DNA of 64,000 nucleotides, from contig CAWIYR010000003.1 of assembly GCA_963840375.1 (NCBI GenBank), positions 218,299 to 282,298 on the forward strand. Direction: 5' to 3'. The notes below the pieces were generated by a model. The model was not told the DNA's origin and searched no databases. It worked only from the letters and a program-made list of their open reading frames with translations. This DNA is from an uncultured Chloroflexia bacterium (GTDB lineage: Bacteria; Chloroflexota; Limnocylindria; Limnocylindrales; CSP1-4). Made by a program: the position numbers and the translations under genes. Positions 27,993 through 41,205 of the stretch are shown here, piece after piece (within the stretch, counting starts at the first letter, position 1; each line of letters begins with the position of its first letter).

Positions 27993-28967
27993 ATGCGAGC
28001 CTCACGCCTGGTGACCCTCCTGCTCCTCCTCCAGACCCGCGGGCGGCTGACCGCCGCCGAGCTCGCCGGGGAGCTCGAGGTCTCGGTGCGGACGGTCCAC
28101 CGCGATGTCGAGGCGCTCAGCCAGGCGGGTGTCCCGATCTATGCCGAGCGCGGCCCCCACGGCGGGATCCGGCTGGTGGACGGCTATCGGACCCGGCTGA
28201 CCGGGATGACCCCGGACGAGGCGGAGGCCCTGTTCCTGTCGGGGATCCCGGGGCCGGCCGCCGAGCTCGGACTCGGAACGGTGGTGACCGCCGCCCGGCT
28301 CAAGGTGCTCGCCGCCCTGCCTCCGGAGCTCCGGACCCGCGCATCGCGCCTGGTCGAGCGCTTCCACCTCGACGCATCCGGCTGGTTCCAGGCCGGCGAG
28401 CCGGTGCCTCACCTCGGTGTCCTCTCGGGAGCGGTCTGGGAGACACGTCGGGTCGAGATCGACTATGAACGCGGGGATCGTCGGGTCAGCCGCGTCCTCG
28501 AGCCGCTCGGGCTCGTCCTGAAGGCCGGCGTCTGGTACCTCGTCGCCGCCACCGACGGGCAGGTCCGGACCTACCGCGTCTCGCGGGTCTCCGCCGCCCG
28601 GCCGCTCCCCGACCGCTTCGTCCGACCGGCCCCGTTCGACCTCGCAGCGTTCTGGACCGAGGCGAGCGCCGCCTACGAGCGGGAGGCGTCACGGGTCGAG
28701 GTCACCGTCCGGGTCCGGCCCGACCGGATCGGTGCGCTTCGCCAGGCGGTCGGCGACCGGGCGGTCGACGGCGCGGCGACCCTGGACGAGCCCGACGCGG
28801 AGGGATGGACCCGTCTCCGGCTCACGATGGACTGGCCCGACGAGGTGCCCGGCCGCCTGCTCGGGATGGGCCGCGACCTCGAGGTGCTGGCACCGGCCGA
28901 GATCCGCCGGGGCCTGATCGAGACGGCCCGCGCCACGCTCGAGCGCTACGACGATGGAGCCGCCTGA
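27993..28967 (+). CDS. WYL-domain transcriptional regulator (N-terminal HTH, YafY-like)
   Basis: N-terminal HTH (LTAAELAGELEVSVRTVHRDVEAL), a WYL-type middle domain (VWYLVAATDGQVRTYRVSRV) and a C-terminal WCX-like part. Confidence 0.8.
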   Translation: MRASRLVTLLLLLQTRGRLTAAELAGELEVSVRTVHRDVEALSQAGVPIYAERGPHGGIRLVDGYRTRLTGMTPDEAEALFLSGIPGPAAELGLGTVVTAARLKVLAALPPELRTRASRLVERFHLDASGWFQAGEPVPHLGVLSGAVWETRRVEIDYERGDRRVSRVLEPLGLVLKAGVWYLVAATDGQVRTYRVSRVSAARPLPDRFVRPAPFDLAAFWTEASAAYEREASRVEVTVRVRPDRIGALRQAVGDRAVDGAATLDEPDAEGWTRLRLTMDWPDEVPGRLLGMGRDLEVLAPAEIRRGLIETARATLERYDDGAA

Positions 28968-29337: not shown

Positions 29338-29712
29338 CTACTCGACGACGATCCGGACGCCGTCGCCGTCGTCCCCGATCGCCTCGAAGACGGGCCCCCG
29401 GGTCCCGTGGGCGACGGCCGTCCGGATCCGGTCCATGGCCTGGCGGGTCAGACCCGGGATCTCCCCGAGGCCGAGCTCGCCGAGCGAGGCCGGCACCCGC
29501 AGGCGGACCCGCACCACGCCCCCCTCGGTCACCTCCAGGCGGAGGGAGCGGCCCGCGGTCGCCGGCCCCGCCGACGCGCCGGACGGGACCCGCTCGGTGA
29601 CCCCCTCCGAGCCCGCGTCGTCGTCGAGGGCGGCGAGGATCGGACCGGCCTCTTCGGCGGTCAGACGGCCCTCGGCGACCAGCCGGAGGACCCGGTCGAG
29701 GGCATCAGTCAT
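29338..29712 (-). CDS. Small protein with SHOCT-like N-terminus (LRLVAEGRLTAEEAGPILAAL), partner of the DUF4097 protein
   Basis: ATG at 29712; 8-bp ATGACTGA overlap with the upstream DUF4097 gene. Confidence 0.5.
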   Translation of the reverse strand: MTDALDRVLRLVAEGRLTAEEAGPILAALDDDAGSEGVTERVPSGASAGPATAGRSLRLEVTEGGVVRVRLRVPASLGELGLGEIPGLTRQAMDRIRTAVAHGTRGPVFEAIGDDGDGVRIVVE

Positions 29713-30778
29713 CGCCGGGCATCCCTTCGTCGATCTCGGCGAGCCGGCGACCGGCCTCGTCCACGTCGATCCGGCCCGCCTCCAGCTCGCGCAGGATGGC
29801 AAGACGGTCGACATCCGCCGATCGCGGGTCACCATCGACGGGTGGCACGGCCGACGCGGTGGCCTCCGACAGGGCCGGGATCGGTTCGGTCTTCGTCGCG
29901 AGCGGAGCCTCGGTCGCGGCCGGTGCCGCGGTCATGTCGGGCGCTGCCGGGCGCGCCGGCGGCGGGGCGGATGATGGCGCCGCCGGAGGGGCGCTGCCGA
30001 CCCGCGGGCCGACGACGGTCAGCCCGCCCGAGATCGACCGGAAGCCCAGCCGCGGCCCTCCCTCGCCGATCCGGATGGTGCGTCGGCCGGGTCCTCCATC
30101 CGAGCGATGGGGCAGGCTCGTCCGCAGGTCCCCGGAGACGGTCCGGCCCTCGACGACGATCGGCCCGGGCGAGACGATCGAGGTATCCCCGGAGATCGTC
30201 TCGATCCAGTGGTCGACATCCCCGGCGAAGGCGCCCTCGAGCCGCAGGTCGCCGCTGGTCGTCTTGACCCGGACCACCCCGAACTCGGGAGCCGTTGCCT
30301 CCAGGTCGGCCGACACGACGCGTGCCTCGAGGTCGAGCCTGGCGTTCGCCCGGACCGCGACATCGCCGGACACGCCGTCGATGACGACCCGGCCGGCCAC
30401 ACCGGTCAGGCGCAGGTCGCCGGAGACGGTGCGATAGCGCTGGTCGCCCTGGAGCCCGTCCCCATGGATCGAGCCGCTCGCGGTCTCGATCCGGAGGGTC
30501 GCTCCGCGCGGGACCTCCAGCTCGAGGTCCTGGGTCCGATCCGTCCGGAACCAGCGGAGACCGATGCCGCCGATCGCGACCGCCTCGACCCGGAGCTCGC
30601 CGGGGCCCCGGACGATCCGGTAGTCGTCGTCGAGGGGCCGCGACCCGGTGCCGCGAAGCCGGACGGTCGAGACGTCGCCGACCCGAAGATCGATCGACCC
30701 ATCGATGCCACGGACGGAGACGGAGCCGTGGGGCCCGATCTCGTGCTCGACCGACGGCGTGGTCTGGCTCAGTGTCAT
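29705..30778 (-). CDS. DUF4097 (putative adhesin-like beta-helix) domain protein with C-terminal SHOCT-like helix
   Basis: Repeated SGDL/SGDV/GSI strands (TVSGDLRLTGVAGRVVIDGVSGDVAVRA...) and a C-terminal ...LAILRELEAGRIDVDEAGRRLAEID. Confidence 0.75.
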   Translation of the reverse strand: MTLSQTTPSVEHEIGPHGSVSVRGIDGSIDLRVGDVSTVRLRGTGSRPLDDDYRIVRGPGELRVEAVAIGGIGLRWFRTDRTQDLELEVPRGATLRIETASGSIHGDGLQGDQRYRTVSGDLRLTGVAGRVVIDGVSGDVAVRANARLDLEARVVSADLEATAPEFGVVRVKTTSGDLRLEGAFAGDVDHWIETISGDTSIVSPGPIVVEGRTVSGDLRTSLPHRSDGGPGRRTIRIGEGGPRLGFRSISGGLTVVGPRVGSAPPAAPSSAPPPARPAAPDMTAAPAATEAPLATKTEPIPALSEATASAVPPVDGDPRSADVDRLAILRELEAGRIDVDEAGRRLAEIDEGMPGDD

Positions 30779-31179
30779 CGGGGTTCCCTCCGAAGTCCTC
30801 GGATCTCGATGGCGGCCTCGTCCGCATCGATCTCGTGCCGGGCGAGCCGTTCGAGGATGGCCTGGCGGGCGGCCGCCGGATCGCCCCCGGTCGAGGCGGA
30901 CGACGACGGGGGGTCGCCGAGGCCGAGCGCCCGGACGAGGGCGTCGACCCGGGCCCGGACGGTCGGGTAGCTGATGCCGAGCTCTCGCTCGACGTCGCGA
31001 AGGTTCCCCCGCGAGCGCAGGAAGCTCTCGAGCAAGGTCATCTGCTCCCGGCCGAGCCGACCGAAGCGCCCGACGCTGAACTCACCCTCCAGGGCGGTGC
31101 CGCAGGTCCGACAGGCGAGGCGGGTGACGATCAGCTCGCCGGAGCAGACCGGACAGGTGGAGATCACATCATGTGTCAT
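30775..31179 (-). CDS. DUF2089 protein (N-terminal zinc ribbon CPVC...CRTC plus HTH)
   Basis: MTHDVISTCPVCSGELIVTRLACRTCGTALEGEF...EQMTLLESFLRSRGNLRDVERELGISYPTVRARVDAL is the canonical DUF2089 pattern; ATGA overlap with the DUF4097 gene. Confidence 0.8.
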   Translation of the reverse strand: MTHDVISTCPVCSGELIVTRLACRTCGTALEGEFSVGRFGRLGREQMTLLESFLRSRGNLRDVERELGISYPTVRARVDALVRALGLGDPPSSSASTGGDPAAARQAILERLARHEIDADEAAIEIRGLRREPR

Positions 31180-31189
31180 CGCATGGCCC

Positions 31190-31306
31190 GCAGATATGAG
31201 TTCCTGATGCGCACATTATGACATGTGACTTTCGTTTTGTCAATGTCATGCACAACTTTGTTGCGTTGCCTTTCGTCCGGCCGCAGTGGCGTACGCTTGA
31301 CCTCCG
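31190..31306. promoter_or_regulatory. AT-rich divergent promoter region with the inverted repeat ATGACAT-N18-ATGTCAT (31218..31249)
   Basis: Locally AT-rich (ttatgacatgtgactttcgttttgtcaatgtcatgcacaactttgtt) in a genome of about 72% GC, between the DUF2089 operon and the GNAT gene. Confidence 0.4.
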
Positions 31307-32146
31307 ATGCAGCTCGAGCGGTTCGACGACCTGGCGGCCTTCCGACGCCGGGCGGAGCCCTTCCTGGTGGCGCGCGAGGCCGAGCACAACCTGCTCCTCG
31401 GGATGACGTCCGCGCTCGGTTCGGCGGCGGAGCACGACCCGGGCCCGGATTACCTGGCGGTGGTCGTCGACGACGGCGTCGTCGTGGCGGTCGCGGGCCA
31501 GACCCCGCCGTTCGGACTCGTCCTCTCGGAGATCGACCGGATCGAGGCGATCGACCTCCTCCTCGACGACGTCGAGGCGATCGGACCGCCGAGCGTCCTC
31601 GGACCGGCCGAACATGCCGGCGGCTTCGCTCGACGCCTCGCCGAGCGTTTCGGCTTCATCGCCGTCCACGAGTCGTCCCAGCGGATCTTCCGGACCACGA
31701 CGATCCGCCCGCCGGTCCCGGCAGCGGGGCACCTCCGGGCGGCGGCGATCGCCGACCGCGACCTCCTCGTCGAGTGGCTGACCGCATTCGAGCGCGAGGC
31801 GCTCGGTGACGACGACCCGATCGGCGTGGACGAGCTCGTCGCCGGGCGACTCGAACGCGGCTGGGCGTTCATCTGGGACGACGACGGACCGGTCTCATTC
31901 GTCGGGATCGGCGGGCGAACGCCGAACGGCGTCCTGCTCGAGGGTGGGTACACCCCGCCGGGTCTCCGCGGTCATGGCTACGGCGGGAACGCCGTCGCCG
32001 CGATCAGCCGCTCACTGCTCGAGGACGGCGCGCTCTTCGTGTTCCTCTTCACCGACCTCGCGAACCCGGTCTCGAACCACATCTACCAGGCGCTCGGCTA
32101 CGAGCCCGTCCGTGACGTCGAGGTCTGGCGCCTCGAGGCGAGGTAG
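31307..32146 (+). CDS. GNAT family N-acetyltransferase (two-domain)
   Basis: C-terminal GNAT core (GLRGHGYGGNAVAAISRSLL...FLFTDLANPVSNHIYQALGYEPV). Confidence 0.65.
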   Translation: MQLERFDDLAAFRRRAEPFLVAREAEHNLLLGMTSALGSAAEHDPGPDYLAVVVDDGVVVAVAGQTPPFGLVLSEIDRIEAIDLLLDDVEAIGPPSVLGPAEHAGGFARRLAERFGFIAVHESSQRIFRTTTIRPPVPAAGHLRAAAIADRDLLVEWLTAFEREALGDDDPIGVDELVAGRLERGWAFIWDDDGPVSFVGIGGRTPNGVLLEGGYTPPGLRGHGYGGNAVAAISRSLLEDGALFVFLFTDLANPVSNHIYQALGYEPVRDVEVWRLEAR

Positions 32147-32166
32147 TCGACGATCCGCCCGGCGAG

Positions 32167-33054
32167 GTGACCCGCGACGGGACGCCGTGGCCCGGGCCCG
32201 CTACGCTCTCCGGGATGCCGCCACCCGTCGCACCCGCGATCCCGATCCGCACGGTCACCGCCACCCGCTACGTCACCCCGTTCCGCGAGGGGGGTTCCCT
32301 GCCGGGACTCATGGAGGCCGACGACGACGGGCTCTACGTCGTGAAGTACCGCGGCGCGGGCCAGGGGCCGAAGGCGCTCATCGCCGAGCTCGTCGCGGGC
32401 GAGGTCGGACGGGCGCTGGGACTGCCGGTGCCGGAGATCGTCCTGGTCGCGCTCGACCCGGCCCTCGGCAAGGCGGAGCCGGACCAGGAGATCCAGGAGC
32501 TGCTCGACCGGAGCGCCGGGCTCAACCTGGGCCTCGACTTCCTGCCCGGCGCCCTCCCCTTCGAGCCCGGGACGGCCGCCGCGCCGAACGCTCCCGTTGG
32601 CGACCGCCCGGACCCCGAGCTGGCCGCGGACATCGTCTGGTTCGACGGACTCGTCACGAACGTGGACCGGACCGCCAGGAACGTCAACCTCCTCGTCTGG
32701 CACCGCCGCCTGTGGCTCATCGACCACGGCGCAGCCCTCTACGTCCAGCACGCCTGGAGCGACCCGGCCGCCCACGCCCGGCGATCCTTCCCACGGATCG
32801 TCGATCACGTGCTCCTGCCCTACGCGGGCTCCATCGCCGCGGCCGACGAGCGCCTCGCCCCGCGGCTGGTGCCCGAGCTGCTCGGCGAGATCGTCGGGGC
32901 GATCCCCTCGGCCTGGCTGGCCGATGGGGCCCGGCCGGCCGGCGACGGATCGGAGAGCGCCCATCGCGACGCCTACGTGGCGTACCTCATGCGCCGGCTC
33001 GAGGGGCCGCGGCCGTTCGTGGAGGAGGCGGACCGTGCCCGGCGTCCGGCGTAG
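32167..33054 (+). CDS. HipA-like / PI3K-PI4K-like kinase-fold protein
   Basis: LYVVKYRGAGQGPKALIAELVAGEV looks like a Gly-rich N-lobe, VTNVDRTARNVNLLVW a catalytic-loop-like motif (DRxxxN) and LWLIDHGAAL an activation-segment-like motif (IDHG); GTG at 32167 or ATG at 32215. Confidence 0.55.
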   Translation: MTRDGTPWPGPATLSGMPPPVAPAIPIRTVTATRYVTPFREGGSLPGLMEADDDGLYVVKYRGAGQGPKALIAELVAGEVGRALGLPVPEIVLVALDPALGKAEPDQEIQELLDRSAGLNLGLDFLPGALPFEPGTAAAPNAPVGDRPDPELAADIVWFDGLVTNVDRTARNVNLLVWHRRLWLIDHGAALYVQHAWSDPAAHARRSFPRIVDHVLLPYAGSIAAADERLAPRLVPELLGEIVGAIPSAWLADGARPAGDGSESAHRDAYVAYLMRRLEGPRPFVEEADRARRPA

Positions 33055-33433
33055 CCCGTTCGAGTACGCCGTCATCCGGGTCGTACCGCGGGTCGACCGG
33101 GGCGAGGCGATGAACGCCGGGATCGTCCTGCACTGCCGGCCGCGACGCTTCCTCGAGGCCATCGTCGAGCTCGACGAGGACATCCTCCGGGCGCTCGCGC
33201 CGGAGTGCGACCCGGCCGCCGTCCGTGCCCACCTCGAGGCGATCCCTCGGATCTGCAGGGGCGACCCGGCCGGGGGTCCGATCTCCGGCCTGAGCCAGGC
33301 CGAGCGGTTCCACTGGCTGGTGGCTCCGTCGAGCACGATCGTCCAGCCGTCGCCGGTCCACACCGGGCTGACCGGCGATCCGGCGGCCACCCTGGACCAC
33401 CTCTTCGGCACGCTCGTCCGCGGGCGCTGGTAG
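33035..33433 (+). CDS. DUF3037 domain protein
   Basis: GTG at 33035 with GGAGGAGG 6 nt upstream; FEYAVIRVVPRVDRGEAMNAGIVLHC... matches DUF3037; overlaps the kinase 3' end by 20 nt. Confidence 0.65.
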   Translation: MPGVRRSPFEYAVIRVVPRVDRGEAMNAGIVLHCRPRRFLEAIVELDEDILRALAPECDPAAVRAHLEAIPRICRGDPAGGPISGLSQAERFHWLVAPSSTIVQPSPVHTGLTGDPAATLDHLFGTLVRGRW

Positions 33434-33443
33434 GGGGCCGGCG

Positions 33444-34733
33444 ATGACGTCCGACGCGCTCCTCATGGTCCGGGCCGGTCGGCTCGTCGACCCGATCGCC
33501 GGCGAGATCCTGGTCGACCGGACGTTCGTCATCCGGGGCGATCGGGTGGAGGCCGTGCTGGCGCCCGGAGCGGTCCCCGTGGAGTCCGGCGACGCCCGCC
33601 GGCTCGACCTGTCGGACCATACCGTGACCCCGGGGCTCATCGACCTCCACACCCACCTCGTCGGCGACCTCCAGTACGAGGACGTCCCGTCGATCGGGGT
33701 GACCGCCGCGAACGAGCTGCTGATGGGCGTCCGGAACGCCAGGGAGACGCTCCGGGCCGGGTTCACGACGGTCCGCGACGTCGGCACGTTCCGGGCGTTC
33801 CTCGACCTCGAGCTGCGTGATGCGATCGACGCCGGCTGGATCGACGGGCCACGGATGCAGGCGGCCGGCGCGTTCGTGACCGTCCCCGGCGGCGGCGGCG
33901 AGGTGACCGGCGACCCGAGCGTGGAGGTGCCCGCGGAGATGCGGGTGGGGCTCGTCCGCACGCCCGAGGACGTGCGCCGGGTCGTGACCCTCCTGTGCGA
34001 CCGCGGCGTCGACGTCGTCAAGGTCATCGCCACCGGCGCCGTGCTGACCGTCGGCACCGAGCCCGGCGAGGTGGAGCTCGACGAGCCGATGCTCCGGGCG
34101 GCGGTCGAGACGGCGGGCGCCCGCGGTCGCTTCGTCGCGGCGCATGCCCACGGCGCCGAGGGGATCCGGGTGGCCGCCCGGGCCGGCGTGCGGACCGTCG
34201 AGCACGGCTCGCTGCTCGACGACGACGGGATCGATCTGCTCGTCCGGCTCGGGACCTACCTCGTGGCCGACGTCTACAACGGCGACTGGATCGCGACCGA
34301 GGGCGCCCGGGCCGGCTGGCCGGCCGAGACGATGCGCAAGAACGACGAGACCACCGAAGCGCAGCGATCGGCCTTCGGGAAGGCCGTCGCCGCCGGGGTC
34401 CGGGTCGCCTTCGGGACCGACTCCGGCGTCTATCCCCACGGGATGAATGCGATCCAGCTCGGCTACATGGTCCGGTACGGGATGACCCCGCTCCAGGCGA
34501 TCCAGGCGGCCACCGCGGTCGCCGCCGAGGCGATGGGCTGGTCCGACCGGGTCGGGGCGCTCGTCGCGGGCCGGTTCGCCGACCTCGTGGCCGTCCCCGG
34601 CGACCCGCTCGCCGCACTCGACGGCTCCGGCCTCGCGGCCTTCCTCGCCCCGACGCTGGTGATGAAGGGCGGTGTCGTCGTCCGCGACGATCGGCCCGAC
34701 CGATCGGCGGTCAGCCCTTCGCGACCGGGATGA
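33444..34733 (+). CDS. Amidohydrolase family metal-dependent hydrolase (imidazolonepropionase / Xaa-Pro dipeptidase-like)
   Basis: DLHTHL metal-binding motif, ...AAHAHGAEG..., ...AFGTDSGV...; typical TIM-barrel amidohydrolase. Confidence 0.85.
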   Translation: MTSDALLMVRAGRLVDPIAGEILVDRTFVIRGDRVEAVLAPGAVPVESGDARRLDLSDHTVTPGLIDLHTHLVGDLQYEDVPSIGVTAANELLMGVRNARETLRAGFTTVRDVGTFRAFLDLELRDAIDAGWIDGPRMQAAGAFVTVPGGGGEVTGDPSVEVPAEMRVGLVRTPEDVRRVVTLLCDRGVDVVKVIATGAVLTVGTEPGEVELDEPMLRAAVETAGARGRFVAAHAHGAEGIRVAARAGVRTVEHGSLLDDDGIDLLVRLGTYLVADVYNGDWIATEGARAGWPAETMRKNDETTEAQRSAFGKAVAAGVRVAFGTDSGVYPHGMNAIQLGYMVRYGMTPLQAIQAATAVAAEAMGWSDRVGALVAGRFADLVAVPGDPLAALDGSGLAAFLAPTLVMKGGVVVRDDRPDRSAVSPSRPG

Positions 34734-35658
34734 CGAGGACGAACCGCCCGTCCTTCCCCGGGTACCTCCCGGTGGGCCGCTTCCAGGGCAGGTAGTCCTC
34801 CGGCAGGAGCCCGACCGGGACGAGGACGTCCGGGCGTCGCGAGGGTCCCCAGATCGTGCTGATCCGCGGATACCAGACGTCCTCGATGCGCAGGGCAGTC
34901 ACCGTGAAGTCGTCGCCCAGGGCCGGGTCGTTCGTCGCCGTGAAGCCGGAGACGACCCAGTTGTGGGCGCCGCGCCAGACGAGCAGGTCGGCCGGCCGAC
35001 CGGTCAGCCGGATCGCCTTCACGGCGGCCTTGACGGCCGCCGCCCGGGTCGGCATGGCGAGGACCTGCCACGAGCCGTAGCCGAGCGAGGTCAGCGTCCG
35101 GGCGATGCCCTCCGGCTCCGGGCCACCGTCCGGCGCCGGTCCCAGCCGTCGGGAGATCCGCTGGAGGAGGGCCTGGGTCTCCCTCGTGGTGTCCGCGCCC
35201 CGGGTCATCACGTTGATCATCGTCTGCATCGCCGCCGGAGCGCACCACGTCACGCGCTTCTCGCTCACGAAGTCGCCGGTCCGGTACAGGTCCATCGCGA
35301 AGGGTCCGGGGCGGGGGGCCGGCTTCAGGCCACCGGTCGTCGACCCGCTCCCGCCCGGCGACGAGGACGGCGTCGCGCTCGGAGCCACGCTCGGTGCGAC
35401 GGACGGCGCCGGTCCGGTCGAGGGCGGGACACCCGAGGCGCCTCCGGACGGGGTGGCCGACCCGGGCCCGGGGGTCGCCACCGGGGCGGACGGTCGGTCG
35501 GTGGCCCCCGGGGTCGCGCCGGCGGCGACGCCCGGCGACCCCGCGGGCGATGACCCGGCCCCGCCGGCCGATCCGCTCGCCGGGTCGCAGGCCGCAGCCA
35601 CCGTGATCGCGGCGAGCAGGAGCAGCGACGCGATCCACCGGTCCATGAGGCCGTCCAT
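34711..35658 (-). CDS. Lipoprotein with a Ser/Pro/Gly-rich linker and a C39-like (papain-fold) peptidase domain
   Basis: Signal peptide plus lipobox (MDRWIASLLLLAAITVAAAC), then a linker, then ...RVTWCAPAAMQTMINVM...WRGAHNWVVSGF... giving a Cys/His dyad pattern. Confidence 0.55.
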   Translation of the reverse strand: MDGLMDRWIASLLLLAAITVAAACDPASGSAGGAGSSPAGSPGVAAGATPGATDRPSAPVATPGPGSATPSGGASGVPPSTGPAPSVAPSVAPSATPSSSPGGSGSTTGGLKPAPRPGPFAMDLYRTGDFVSEKRVTWCAPAAMQTMINVMTRGADTTRETQALLQRISRRLGPAPDGGPEPEGIARTLTSLGYGSWQVLAMPTRAAAVKAAVKAIRLTGRPADLLVWRGAHNWVVSGFTATNDPALGDDFTVTALRIEDVWYPRISTIWGPSRRPDVLVPVGLLPEDYLPWKRPTGRYPGKDGRFVLVIPVAKG

Positions 35659-35743
35659 CGTGGGACGAGCCGGCAGGACGGTCAACTCGCCCGCCGCGGC
35701 CGATCGTGGGCCGCCGGCCCTCGAGCCGGTCGCGCGGCCGTCG

Positions 35744-36373
35744 TCAGCCGGCGTCGCCCGCCCGCATCGTGGCCATCGCGGCAGCGCCGGCCTCGTCGTC
35801 GGTGGCACCGGCCCGCAGGGCGGCCTTGTAGGCCCGCTTGCCGGCCTGGTAGGACGCGAGCGCCTCGGGCGAGTCGACGTCGCCGAGGGTCGGACGGGTC
35901 GGCGCGACCGCCTCCCAGCCGGGCGGCCGGACCTCGAACCGATGGACGATGACGGCGATGATCGACTTCGCCTTCATCTCGCCGATCCCGGGCAGGGCCA
36001 GCAGGCGACGCTCGAGGTCGCGACCGTCCTGCGCCTCGAGCCAGATCCGCCCGGCGTCGTCGCCGTAGTCGCGGGCGACCGCGACGCACAGGGCCTGGAC
36101 CTTGGCGGCCATCGCGGCGGGGAAGCGGTGGAGGGCCGGTCGCTGCCGGAAGACCTCGATGAACTCGTCGGGACCCATCGCCGCGATCCGTCCGGCGTCG
36201 AGCCCGCCGAGCCGGCGCTTCAGCTCGAGCGGGCCGCCGAACGCCTTCTGGACGGTGACCTGCTGGTCGAGGGCGAAGCCGATGAGGAGCGCCAGGGGCT
36301 CGCTCACCAGCAGCCGGTCGGCGTCGTCGTCACCGGTGAAGTAGAGCCGGTCGGGAAGCTTCGAGGTTGCCAT
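35744..36373 (-). CDS. HhH-GPD superfamily base-excision DNA repair protein (TIGR03252-like)
   Basis: ATG at 36373; ...LALLIGFALDQQVTVQKAF...LLALPGIGEMKAKSIIAV... contains a helix-hairpin-helix. Confidence 0.7.
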   Translation of the reverse strand: MATSKLPDRLYFTGDDDADRLLVSEPLALLIGFALDQQVTVQKAFGGPLELKRRLGGLDAGRIAAMGPDEFIEVFRQRPALHRFPAAMAAKVQALCVAVARDYGDDAGRIWLEAQDGRDLERRLLALPGIGEMKAKSIIAVIVHRFEVRPPGWEAVAPTRPTLGDVDSPEALASYQAGKRAYKAALRAGATDDEAGAAAMATMRAGDAG

Positions 36374-36432
36374 CCGGTCATGGTAGCGAGTCGCGACATC
36401 GCCGTCGGTCGGCCTTCCGGCATACTCGTGGC

Positions 36433-37191
36433 GTGGACGCGACGATCGACTGGCTGGGTCATGCCACACTGCTCATCGAGCTCGACGGCGTGCGCATCCT
36501 GACCGACCCGACGATCCGGGAGCGGATCGGGCCCCTCGACCGGAAGGTCCCGCCGGTCCCCCACCACGCCCTCGAGCGGATCGACGCGGTCCTCGTGAGT
36601 CACCTCCACCTGGACCACCTCGACCTGGCCTCGATCCGCCGGCTCGGCGAGCCGCGGCTCATCGTGCCGGCCGGGTCGGGACGGATCTTCCGCGCGGCCG
36701 GGCATCGCGACATCGACGAGGTGGCCCCGGGCGACACGACCACCCACGGGCCGCTGACGATCGAGGTCGTCCGGGCCGACCACAGCGGCTTCCGGCCGCC
36801 GTTCGGGCCGACGGCACCCGCGCTCGGCTTCATCGTCTCGAACGGCCGGCGGCGGATCTACTTCGCCGGCGACACGGCCCTGTACCCGGAGATGGCGGAC
36901 TTCCAGGACCTCGACGCCGCGTTCCTCCCGGTCTGGGGCTGGGGCCCGAACCTCCGCGGCGGCCACATGGATCCGGTCATGGCCGCCCATGCGGCGGACC
37001 TCATCCGCCCGGGCGTCGCGGTGCCGATCCACTGGGGGACCTTCTGGCCGAAGGCCATGGGCAAGGTCCGGCCGGACCGGTTCGTAGGACCGGGCAGTGA
37101 GTTCTCGGTGGCCGCCGGTGAGCTCGCCGCGGGCGTGAGGGTCACGATCCTCACCCCGGGCGAACGGCTCGACCTGGGCCGCCCGGCGTAG
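36433..37191 (+). CDS. MBL-fold metallo-hydrolase
   Basis: VLVSHLHLDHLD metal-binding motif; the GTG at 36433 avoids overlap with the divergent HhH-GPD gene. Confidence 0.7.
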   Translation: MDATIDWLGHATLLIELDGVRILTDPTIRERIGPLDRKVPPVPHHALERIDAVLVSHLHLDHLDLASIRRLGEPRLIVPAGSGRIFRAAGHRDIDEVAPGDTTTHGPLTIEVVRADHSGFRPPFGPTAPALGFIVSNGRRRIYFAGDTALYPEMADFQDLDAAFLPVWGWGPNLRGGHMDPVMAAHAADLIRPGVAVPIHWGTFWPKAMGKVRPDRFVGPGSEFSVAAGELAAGVRVTILTPGERLDLGRPA

Positions 37192-39345: not shown

Positions 39346-39764
39346 CTCCTGGTGCTGACGGTCACCGGCATCCTCTCACCCCCCGCGACCCTGTCAAGGT
39401 CGACCGCGACCGATCGTGCGCGGACCGGCGGGTCGACCCGATCCTGATCCGCCAGACCCTCTCGACACCCGGCCGGGGCGGGAGTAGATTCGAGTGGCGA
39501 ACGGTCCGTGGTCGACCGACCGGCGGTCGTCCCGACGGGCCTGGTGAGGCTTCAAGTCCGATGCGCCTCGACCGCAGCAGACCGGGAAGAACCGGACGGA
39601 GCGACGACCCGCGAACGAGCGGGCGATCGCTGCCGATCACGGCGGATGCGTCGCACGGTGCAGCGAACCTCGCCACGATCCCCCGCGCGGGGAACATCTC
39701 GAGCGACACGCGGGCGGGCCTCTGATCGACGCCACGGTGGCCGGAGAAGGCTCCGTGGCGACCC

Positions 39765-39814
39765 GAGAATCGAAGCGAGACCCACGTCTGACCGGGCGTG
39801 GGCCTCCGATTCTC
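39765..39814 (+). promoter_or_regulatory. Nested hairpin in the long 5' leader of the DEAD-box helicase gene
   Basis: GAGAATCG...CGATTCTC outer stem with CCCACG...CGTGGG inner stem, about 130 nt upstream of the TTG start; the putative leader spans about 39350-39940. Confidence 0.3.
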
Positions 39815-39942
39815 CGGCCCTTCGGCTATGCTCCGCGAGACGACCCGCCCCGCCCACGGGGGCGCGGGCGACCGGGCCGACCCGCCCGACGTCGGATGAC
39901 CCGCCCGCGCGGCCTCGGCCCGACGGGCCACAGGAGCCCTGC

Positions 39943-41205
39943 TTGACCTTCGACACCCTCGGCCTCTCGGCCGACATCCTCCGCGCGGTCGCGGAAGAGG
40001 GCTACACGGAGCCCACCCCCATCCAGGAGCGGTCCATCCCGCTCGTCCTCCAGGGCCGCGACATCCTCGCCGCCGCCCAGACCGGGACCGGCAAGACGGC
40101 CGCGTTCACCCTGCCGATCCTGGAGCGCCTGCGGGTCCACGCGAACACGAGCTTCTCGCCGGCCCGCCACCCGGTCCGCGCCCTCATGGTCACGCCCACC
40201 CGCGAGCTCGCGATGCAGATCGCCGAGAGCGTCGGCGCCTATGGACGACACGTCCCGCTCCGCTCGGCGGTCGTCTACGGCGGTATCCCGATCGATCCCC
40301 AGATCAAGGAGCTCCGCTCGGGCGTGGAGATCCTCGTGGCCACCCCGGGGCGACTCATGGACCACGTCGGGCAGCGGACGGTGAACCTGTCGCAGGTCGA
40401 GATCCTGGTCCTCGACGAGGCGGACCGGATGCTCGACATGGGCTTCATCCCCGACATCCGCAAGATCGTCGCGCTCCTCCCGTCGAAGCGCCAGAACCTC
40501 CTCTTCAGCGCGACGTTCTCGGACGAGATCCGACGCCTGGCCCAGGAGTTCCTGCACGACCCCGAGACGGTCGAGGTCGCCGCCCGGAACATCGCGGCGG
40601 AGGGGGTCTCGCAGGTCGTCTACCCGGTCGACCGCGACCGGAAGGAGGACCTCCTCATCCACCTCGTCCGACGCGACAGGATGGAGCAGGTCCTCGTCTT
40701 CACCCGGACGAAGCTCGCCGCCAGCCGGCTCGCCTCGTACCTCGACCGGCGGGGCGTGAACGCGGTCGCCATCCACAGCGATCGGAGCCAGCCCGAGCGG
40801 ACCCGCGCCCTCGAGGACTTCAAGCGCGGGGAGGTCACCTGTCTCGTGGCCACCGACGTCGCCTCGCGCGGGCTCGACATCGAGGAGCTGCCGTACGTCG
40901 TGAACTTCGAGCTCCCGTTCGAGGCCCAGGACTACATCCACCGGATCGGCCGGACCGGTCGGGCCGGCCTGAGCGGCGCCGCGATCTCGCTCGTCTGCAC
41001 CGACGAGGTCGAGCTCCTGCGGGCGATCCAGCGCCTGCTGAAGATGCCCATTCCCTTCCAGATCGTGCCGGGCTTCGAGCCGGACCGGAACATCGTCCCG
41101 CGCCCGATCCGCGGGTTCGGACAGGACGGGGGCGGTGATCGCGGGCATCACGCCCACCACAAGCCGATCCGGGTGCGATCGGGCGGGGGCCGGACCCGGG
41201 GCTGA
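39943..41205 (+). CDS. DEAD-box ATP-dependent RNA helicase (RhlE/DeaD-like)
   Basis: Q-motif (TEPTPIQ), motif [19 protein letters not shown] (VLDEADRM), [13 protein letters not shown]; TTG at 39943 with GGAG 6 nt upstream. Confidence 0.85.

Follow-up and report, generated by a model that had tools for sequence, protein, structure and literature searches.

A HipA_2-family kinase gene overlapped by a DUF3037-only partner gene in a Limnocylindrales bacterium: a minimal-partner chromosomal branch of the HipAD family

A 64,000-nt stretch of contig CAWIYR010000003.1 (assembly GCA_963840375.1, positions 218,299 to 282,298 of the forward strand), referred to below as the window, originates from an uncultured Chloroflexia bacterium of the order Limnocylindrales. 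It carries two overlapping open reading frames (ORFs) on the plus strand: ORF A, which encodes a HipA_2-family Ser/Thr kinase, and ORF B, which encodes a short DUF3037 protein. The pair almost certainly belongs to the HipA_2 + DUF3037 superfamily, which comprises HipAD, DS-6 and PDC-M66. Within it, the window pair represents a minimal-partner, highly conserved chromosomal branch that is distant from the experimentally tested systems.

Domain content and predicted structure of the two proteins

ORF A matched the Pfam family HipA_2 (PF20613) with 66.8 bits (cut-off, 27; E = 2.3e-18), as well as the PADLOC model PDC-M66A (E = 1e-20) and PHROG 3162 (E = 1.7e-22). HipA_2 was the only family detected in the Pfam scan of this protein; no HipA_C, HipA_N (Couple_hipA), PI3_PI4_kinase, APH or other small-molecule kinase domain was found. 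The NCBIfam scan returned no match for either ORF, and searches of PDB chains with the profiles of both proteins yielded nothing meaningful (E = 0.83 and 0.31).

The AlphaFold2 model of the kinase, built with 42 homologues, reached a predicted local distance difference test score (pLDDT) of 81 and a predicted template modelling (TM) score of 0.84. According to Foldseek, the best structural match was CtkA (3akk and 3akl; E = 1.5e-4, TM-score ~0.5), with Fam20A, HipA of Shewanella, PI4KII-alpha and HipT below it; the E-values were 7e-3 for HipA (4pu4) and 2.4e-2 for HipT (8ezs). Similarity to lipid kinases was weak (4hnd, E = 1.2e-2; Vps34, E = 1.7e-2). The model thus places ORF A among predicted HipA/CtkA-fold protein kinases. 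An earlier reading of the DNA letters without database searches (the sequence-only reading) had described a PI3K/HipA-like kinase. The kinase fold held up in both the Pfam and Foldseek searches, whereas neither PI3_PI4_kinase nor HipA_C was recovered from Pfam, and the PI3K component is reduced to weak fold similarity.

Residue conservation was scored over 81 kinase sequences of the clade. The Gly-rich stretches (EGGSLPG and GAGQGPK), the DRxxxN-like motif (DRTARN) and the IDHG motif, all of which had been pointed out in the sequence-only reading, are present in ORF A. Residues S28, K44, E58, D151, N156 and D170 are invariant in 81 of 81 sequences, which argues for active kinases; at the sequence level, the members of the clade appear catalytically competent and not pseudokinases. 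Within the Gly-rich loop, R24, G26 and P30 are likewise invariant, and E25 is retained in 80 sequences. The model has low pLDDT at residues 25–27, as expected of a flexible loop. S28 is a candidate autophosphorylation site.

A by-eye alignment set IVWFDGLVTNVDRTARNVNLL..RRLWLIDHGA against FQWLIGATDGHAKNFSVF..YRLTPFYDII of E. coli HipA. It would pair D151 with D309 and N156 with N314 (D309-G-H-A-K-N314), and D170 with D332 (LTPFYD), while K44 may correspond, by its order along the sequence, to the lysine of HIIK181. An hhalign comparison of the kinase profile with E. coli HipA was not significant (17 columns, E = 0.053), and therefore sequence-level membership in canonical HipA is not claimed.

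ORF B matched DUF3037 (PF11236) end to end (profile positions 1–118 of 118; 141 bits, E = 2e-41), in agreement with the domain name given to it in the sequence-only reading. Its match to PDC-M66B (E = 2e-7) covered only positions 4–129 of 281, and that to PHROG 5137 covered positions 3–130 of 279. A 127-aa partner from Bacteroides likewise covers just the first ~130 positions of both models. The AlphaFold2 model of ORF B (pLDDT 85) retrieved nothing significant from the PDB (best E = 0.49); DUF3037 thus cannot be recognised as HipB-like, as HipS-like or as any known DNA-binding fold. The search of BFVD viral structures retrieved only unnamed phage proteins of 261–287 aa (probability 1.0, TM-score 0.57–0.62). 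Oligoribonuclease matches in the PDB search of ORF B were rejected as noise (E of 0.5 or worse, probability of 0.15 or less).

Linkage, distribution and gene junction

In every one of 84 related loci, which together cover at least 8 phyla, the DUF3037 gene was located directly downstream of the kinase gene on the same strand. The pairing of the two genes is not due to chance. The profile searches and the gene-neighbourhood comparison proposed in the sequence-only reading returned a kinase fold match and consistent co-occurrence of the two families, respectively. Kinase and DUF3037 sequences also diverge together (Mantel r = 0.71, p = 0.001). A conserved third gene was sought around the pair in these loci and was not found; the next commonest neighbour occurred in only 19 of them, reflecting lineage synteny. 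The GNAT and amidohydrolase genes do flank the pair on the same strand in the window, as had been read from the sequence; as conserved partners they were discarded, since neither is recurrent in related loci.

The number of carriers was estimated from two signature peptides of the clade in a set of 185,579 species, each represented by one genome. At least 594 species carry both peptides, which is a lower bound. In the best 80 of these, the clade spans Chloroflexota, Actinomycetota, Acidobacteriota, Cyanobacteria, Gamma- and Betaproteobacteria, Myxococcota, Verrucomicrobiota and Ignavibacteria; plasmid records add Bacteroidota to the range. Culturable carriers include Bacteroides, Lysobacter, Archangium, Dictyobacter and Streptomyces. 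At the 90% cluster level, close relatives of the kinase number more than 8,000; at the 50% level, 5,218, 2,472 and 708 clusters were obtained at E up to 1e-3, 1e-10 and 1e-30, respectively. The kinases of two metagenome-assembled genomes, one from Verrucomicrobiia (locus L062) and one from Limnocylindrales (locus L071), are 81% identical, well above the usual between-phylum level, which reflects either a recent horizontal transfer or a mis-binned contig.

The kinase probably starts at ATG 32215 rather than at GTG 32167, because its homologues are ~255–280 aa long and one 99%-identical homologue has 279 aa. Homologues of the partner are 131–132 aa long, with a clade median of 132 aa, and the start of the DUF3037 gene at GTG 33035 is therefore supported. 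An antisense ORF at 32098..33411 was dismissed as a high-GC artefact, its G+C content at third codon positions being 0.84 versus 0.92 in the plus-strand frame.

The same-strand arrangement, the 20-nt overlap and the separate Shine-Dalgarno (SD) element of the DUF3037 gene had all been described from the sequence, and all were found; the element, GGAGGAGG, lies 6 nt before the GTG. The tight coupling inferred from them also extends beyond the window, with SD element and overlap recurring in ~90% of loci. The codons for the conserved C-terminal F-V-E-E-A of the kinase, ..TTCGTGGAGGAGGC.., put a GAGGAGG SD 5–6 nt before the (G/A)TG of the DUF3037 gene. Among the 81 loci tallied, an SD-like element was present at the junction in 75, from many phyla and with low-GC cyanobacteria among them, and the two genes overlapped by 8–23 nt in 74. 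The window has a G+C content of 72.9%; at this junction (window positions 33010–33037), TTCGTGGAGGAGGC is retained even in cyanobacteria with 45% GC. Apparent overlaps of 101, 182 and 821 nt at three loci are regarded as artefacts of simple stop-codon parsing and not as gene fusions.

Since the SD element and the overlap recur, including in 45%-GC Microcoleus, the conserved junction points to selection for translational coupling. The DNA encoding FVEEA is thus constrained twice, by protein coding and by ribosome binding. With the DUF3037 gene starting inside the kinase gene behind an embedded SD, both proteins should be produced in a fixed ratio. Upstream of the kinase gene, neither an operator-like inverted repeat (just weak 73–75% repeats typical of high-GC DNA) nor, on the plus strand, a sigma-70-like promoter was detected. 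No second copy of the pair was found within the window.

Comparison with validated systems and proposed function

HipA_2 + DUF3037 pairs have been recognised as anti-phage kinase toxin-antitoxin (TA) systems only in 2025–26. DUF3037 is strongly associated with HipA-like kinases, and a pair adjoining Retron-Sda1 protects E. coli from phage Bas51 without needing the retron (PMC12548924). In the Retron-Sda1 cassette, deletion of the kinase abolishes defence, and deletion of DUF3037 is toxic (PMC12548924). The DefensePredictor system DS-6, consisting of a HipA-family kinase and a DUF3037 + DUF1829 protein, has also been validated; a catalytic mutant of DS-6A loses defence, and AlphaFold3 predicts a complex of its A and B components (PMC13092281). 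DS-6 was there renamed HipAD, following Brenes & Laub 2025. The sequence-only reading had assigned no established function to the pairing, a statement that is outdated because such pairs have been tested in these two studies: the combination corresponds to PADLOC PDC-M66, validated as DS-6/HipAD and in the Retron-Sda1 cassette. Its guess of a TA-like module is in line with what was observed experimentally for homologous pairs (PMC12548924, PMC13092281).

An annotated example is found in phage PhiR5_1 (PV340545.1, 3060–5511), where a 249-aa "HipA toxin" gene and a 275-aa "HipD antitoxin" gene overlap by 4 nt. They directly follow the cI repressor gene in this lambdoid phage. In lambda, this slot is occupied by rexAB; the site downstream of cI may be a recurrent slot for morons or defence genes. 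Of 5,426 complete E. coli genomes, 284 carry the phage HipAD at 99% identity or higher, and it is therefore a recently spread accessory element.

The window pair resembles HipAD in its order of a HipA_2 kinase gene followed by an overlapping same-strand DUF3037 gene, in the PHROG families 3162 and 5137 and the PADLOC PDC-M66 models (both components, PDC-M66A and PDC-M66B) that recognise both pairs, and in the catalytic DRT...N and IDH motifs of both kinases. Direct comparison gave E = 3e-14 between the window kinase and PhiR5_1 HipA, and E = 1e-4 between the partner and the N-terminal half of HipD. However, HipD matches PDC-M66B and PHROG 5137 over their full length, whereas the window partner lacks the C-terminal half, and no gene neighbouring the clade loci supplies it. 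DS-6B carries DUF1829 (PMC13092281), which is absent from the window partner, and the Retron-Sda1 DUF3037 protein's C-terminal region resembles a retron DNA-binding protein (PMC12548924), a region with no counterpart in ORF B. HipAD is borne by lambdoid prophages of E. coli and is accessory; the window clade is chromosomal and divergent and follows taxonomy. The window pair accordingly has neither a two-domain partner of ~275 aa nor a location in a prophage, mobile element or defence island.

Similarity to canonical HipBA and HipBST is limited to the fold class of the kinase, the catalytic-loop and metal-binding motifs aligned by eye, and the two-gene design built around a kinase toxin. Unlike HipA, the window kinase, which is of a ~265–280-aa type, has no HipA_C or HipA_N Pfam match and no HipA N-terminal subdomain. 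HipB is an upstream Xre-type helix-turn-helix (HTH) antitoxin, whereas the gene upstream of the window kinase encodes a GNAT protein and its non-HTH partner lies downstream. Nor is the partner HipS-like: its PDB search returned nothing significant, although the structures searched included those of HipS-HipT. The pairing falls outside the ten Hip kinase gene organisations described in PMC8262856, which did not figure among the papers containing the term DUF3037. CtkA (JHP0940), a pro-inflammatory Ser/Thr kinase of Helicobacter pylori and the best fold match, is of similar size (~280–300 residues) but shares only 12–15% sequence identity with the window kinase. CtkA is a secreted stand-alone effector and is not known to have a DUF3037 partner.

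With modest confidence, we propose by analogy that the pair works as a kinase-inhibitor, TA-like module. The genes annotated as HipA toxin and HipD antitoxin in PhiR5_1 follow the same order and likewise overlap. The module would be self-contained, with two genes and no need of a third. As in its distant homologues, the DUF3037 protein would bind the kinase and hold it inactive; infection or stress may then deplete or displace DUF3037, and the kinase, once released from this restraint, would phosphorylate an essential host protein and cause growth arrest. The branch differs from the tested systems in its DUF3037-only partner and in being a strongly conserved, largely vertically inherited chromosomal pair, not prophage or island cargo. 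That phage defence is the main role in the source organism appears doubtful.

Several observations weigh against a TA-like function. Identity to the validated proteins is only 27% (phage HipA) and 19% (HipD). The partner, at 132 aa, lacks the C-terminal ~150 aa of HipD, DS-6B and PDC-M66B, and no DNA-binding domain suited to autoregulation was detected in the pair by Pfam or fold search. The flanks consist of ordinary metabolic genes, defence matches among them are sporadic, and the window shows no GC shift around the pair. Over at least 8 phyla, the kinases share a mean identity of 61% (minimum 46%), nearest neighbours mostly belong to the same phylum with few cross-phylum exceptions, and the signature peptides of the clade found no member in 2.9 million IMG/VR viral contigs.

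Several of these points favour a different role, in which the pair is a housekeeping signalling complex: the kinase would act on a normal cellular target or on DUF3037, DUF3037 would be its obligate partner in the role of regulatory subunit, adaptor or substrate, and purifying selection would keep the pair in core physiology, e.g., growth or stress control in soil bacteria. We regard this as unlikely, but it is the strongest of the alternatives. For a defence or TA gene, the degree of conservation is unusually high, and the phylogeny is for the most part congruent with taxonomy. Antitoxins usually diverge faster than toxins, and here the partner is nearly as conserved as the kinase (mean identity of 55% versus 61%). 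Its invariant polar residues R22, E24, N27, R91, W94 and H109 hint at more than a simple plug. The absence from viral contigs, the ordinary chromosomal contexts in Chloroflexota, Bacteroides and others, and, in related genomes, the local synteny with a WYL regulator, a helix-hairpin-helix (HhH)-like gene and a DEAD helicase point in the same direction.

In contrast, every experimentally tested HipA_2 + DUF3037 pair behaves like a toxin with its neutraliser and acts against phages (PMC12548924, PMC13092281). Neighbours differ between lineages, as expected of a portable cassette; in some cases the nearest neighbour belongs to another phylum, as with the Verrucomicrobiia and Limnocylindrales kinases; and the count of carriers among the 185,579 species, although a lower bound, points to a patchy distribution. 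A further, similarly tentative suggestion is that the short-partner clade constitutes an unrecognised, vertically maintained Ser/Thr-kinase signalling pair with an obligate DUF3037 subunit or substrate, from which HipAD was derived or which was itself domesticated from HipAD. Such a pair would span soil Chloroflexota, Actinomycetota, Acidobacteriota, Cyanobacteria, Bacteroidota and Proteobacteria.

ORF A is very unlikely to be a PI3K/PI4K-like or aminoglycoside-kinase-like enzyme acting on lipids or small molecules, with DUF3037 presenting the substrate or acting as an accessory. PI4KII-alpha and Vps34 are among the weaker Foldseek matches (E = 1e-2 to 3e-2), and DxxxxN and DxG motifs are common to lipid and small-molecule kinases. 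However, apart from this weak fold similarity, the window kinase has none of the corresponding Pfam domains, CtkA and Fam20, both of them protein kinases, match its structure best, its motifs are most similar to those of HipA, and no metabolic gene consistently co-occurs with the pair. Fortuitous adjacency of unrelated genes that lie in one operon together with those for GNAT and amidohydrolase would account for four same-strand genes with short gaps, 68 nt before and 10 nt after the pair, but is virtually ruled out by the co-occurrence in all 84 loci, the conserved overlap with its embedded SD, the correlated divergence and the lack of recurrence of the two flanking genes.

The tested HipA_2 + DUF3037 examples are all mobile enterobacterial or retron-linked elements with a two-domain partner, whereas the window pair represents a much larger, conserved chromosomal branch. 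If this branch still functions as a TA system, the DUF3037 domain alone would be the neutralising element, and HipD's C-terminal half would be an extra that may serve sensing or DNA binding. Otherwise, a conserved signalling kinase and a defence toxin would share one ancestor. The branch offers a clean test of whether DUF3037 alone neutralises a HipA_2 kinase and of whether the role of the pair is immune, addictive or physiological.

Gene coordinates and genomic neighbourhood

Coordinates of the pair, its sequence motifs and neighbouring genes are listed in Table 1.

Table 1. Features of the kinase/DUF3037 pair and of surrounding genes (positions within the window).
Feature	Position	Strand	Remark
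HipA_2-family Ser/Thr kinase gene (ORF A)	32215..33054	+	279 aa from ATG 32215
Longest kinase ORF	32167..33054	+	295 aa from GTG 32167
DUF3037-only partner gene (ORF B)	33035..33433	+	132 aa, GTG start; putative kinase-binding/neutralising partner
Shine-Dalgarno element of the DUF3037 gene (GGAGGAGG)	33021..33028	+	read off the sequence; inside the kinase V-E-E codons
Overlap of kinase 3' end and DUF3037 5' end	33035..33054	+	20 nt
Gly-rich loop E25-G-G-S28-L-P30	32287..32304	+	candidate nucleotide-binding loop
K44 in VVK	32344..32346	+	candidate ATP-binding lysine
Catalytic loop D151-R-T-A-R-N156 (DRTARN)	32665..32682	+	
I-D170-H-G (IDHG)	32719..32730	+	metal-binding DFG-like motif
GNAT gene	31307..32146	+	upstream flank
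Amidohydrolase gene	33444..34733	+	downstream flank
HTH-WYL-WCX regulator gene	27993-28967	+	PafBC or defence-associated type
DUF4097 "toastrack" gene	29705..30778	-	
DUF2089 Zn-ribbon/HTH gene	30775..31179	-	
365-aa protein gene	34711-35808	-	no Pfam match
241-aa protein gene	35744-36469	-	no Pfam match
DEAD-box helicase gene	39508-41205	+	

The neighbours of the pair in the window encode a WYL regulator, a DUF2089/DUF4097 pair, the GNAT protein, the amidohydrolase, a metallo-beta-lactamase-fold hydrolase, an alcohol dehydrogenase and a DEAD-box helicase. The nearest model for the amidohydrolase was Xaa-Pro dipeptidase, with a score under the cut-off of that model. No tRNA genes or Rfam elements were found in the window context. 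In related Chloroflexota contigs, genes for ribonucleotide reductase, PAC2, GreA-like and DEAD helicase proteins are located near the pair, and the Bacteroides finegoldii pair is placed among glycoside hydrolase genes. A census of 148 flanking ORFs from ~78 species gave F420H2 quinone reductase, major facilitator superfamily and ABC transporters as the commonest Pfam families. Integrases, transposases and other mobile-element families were absent from the top 25 families of this census, and PADLOC matches among the flanking ORFs were sporadic.

The WYL regulator gene lies ~3 kb upstream of the pair. Its orthologue occurs at a similar distance in 14 related loci, and it therefore reflects lineage synteny and is not a universal partner. 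The DEAD-box helicase gene, 4–6 kb downstream of the pair, also occurs in two related Chloroflexota contigs (L001, 12956–14257; L004, 14783–16039), both of which carry a gene for a 430-aa GreA/GreB-like protein nearby. Its proximity to the pair is probably a conserved chromosomal synteny of the lineage.

The DUF2089 and DUF4097 genes overlap by 4 nt. Just upstream of DUF2089 lies the one strong sigma-70-like promoter of the region (TTGACA-17-CATAAT, 31243..31215, 11 of 12 matches), and the arrangement resembles a small operon for stress response. The genes for the 365-aa and 241-aa proteins both appear to be real; the 365-aa protein has an Ala/Pro/Ser/Gly-rich N-terminal region, and the 241-aa protein recurs near the pair in 19 related loci.

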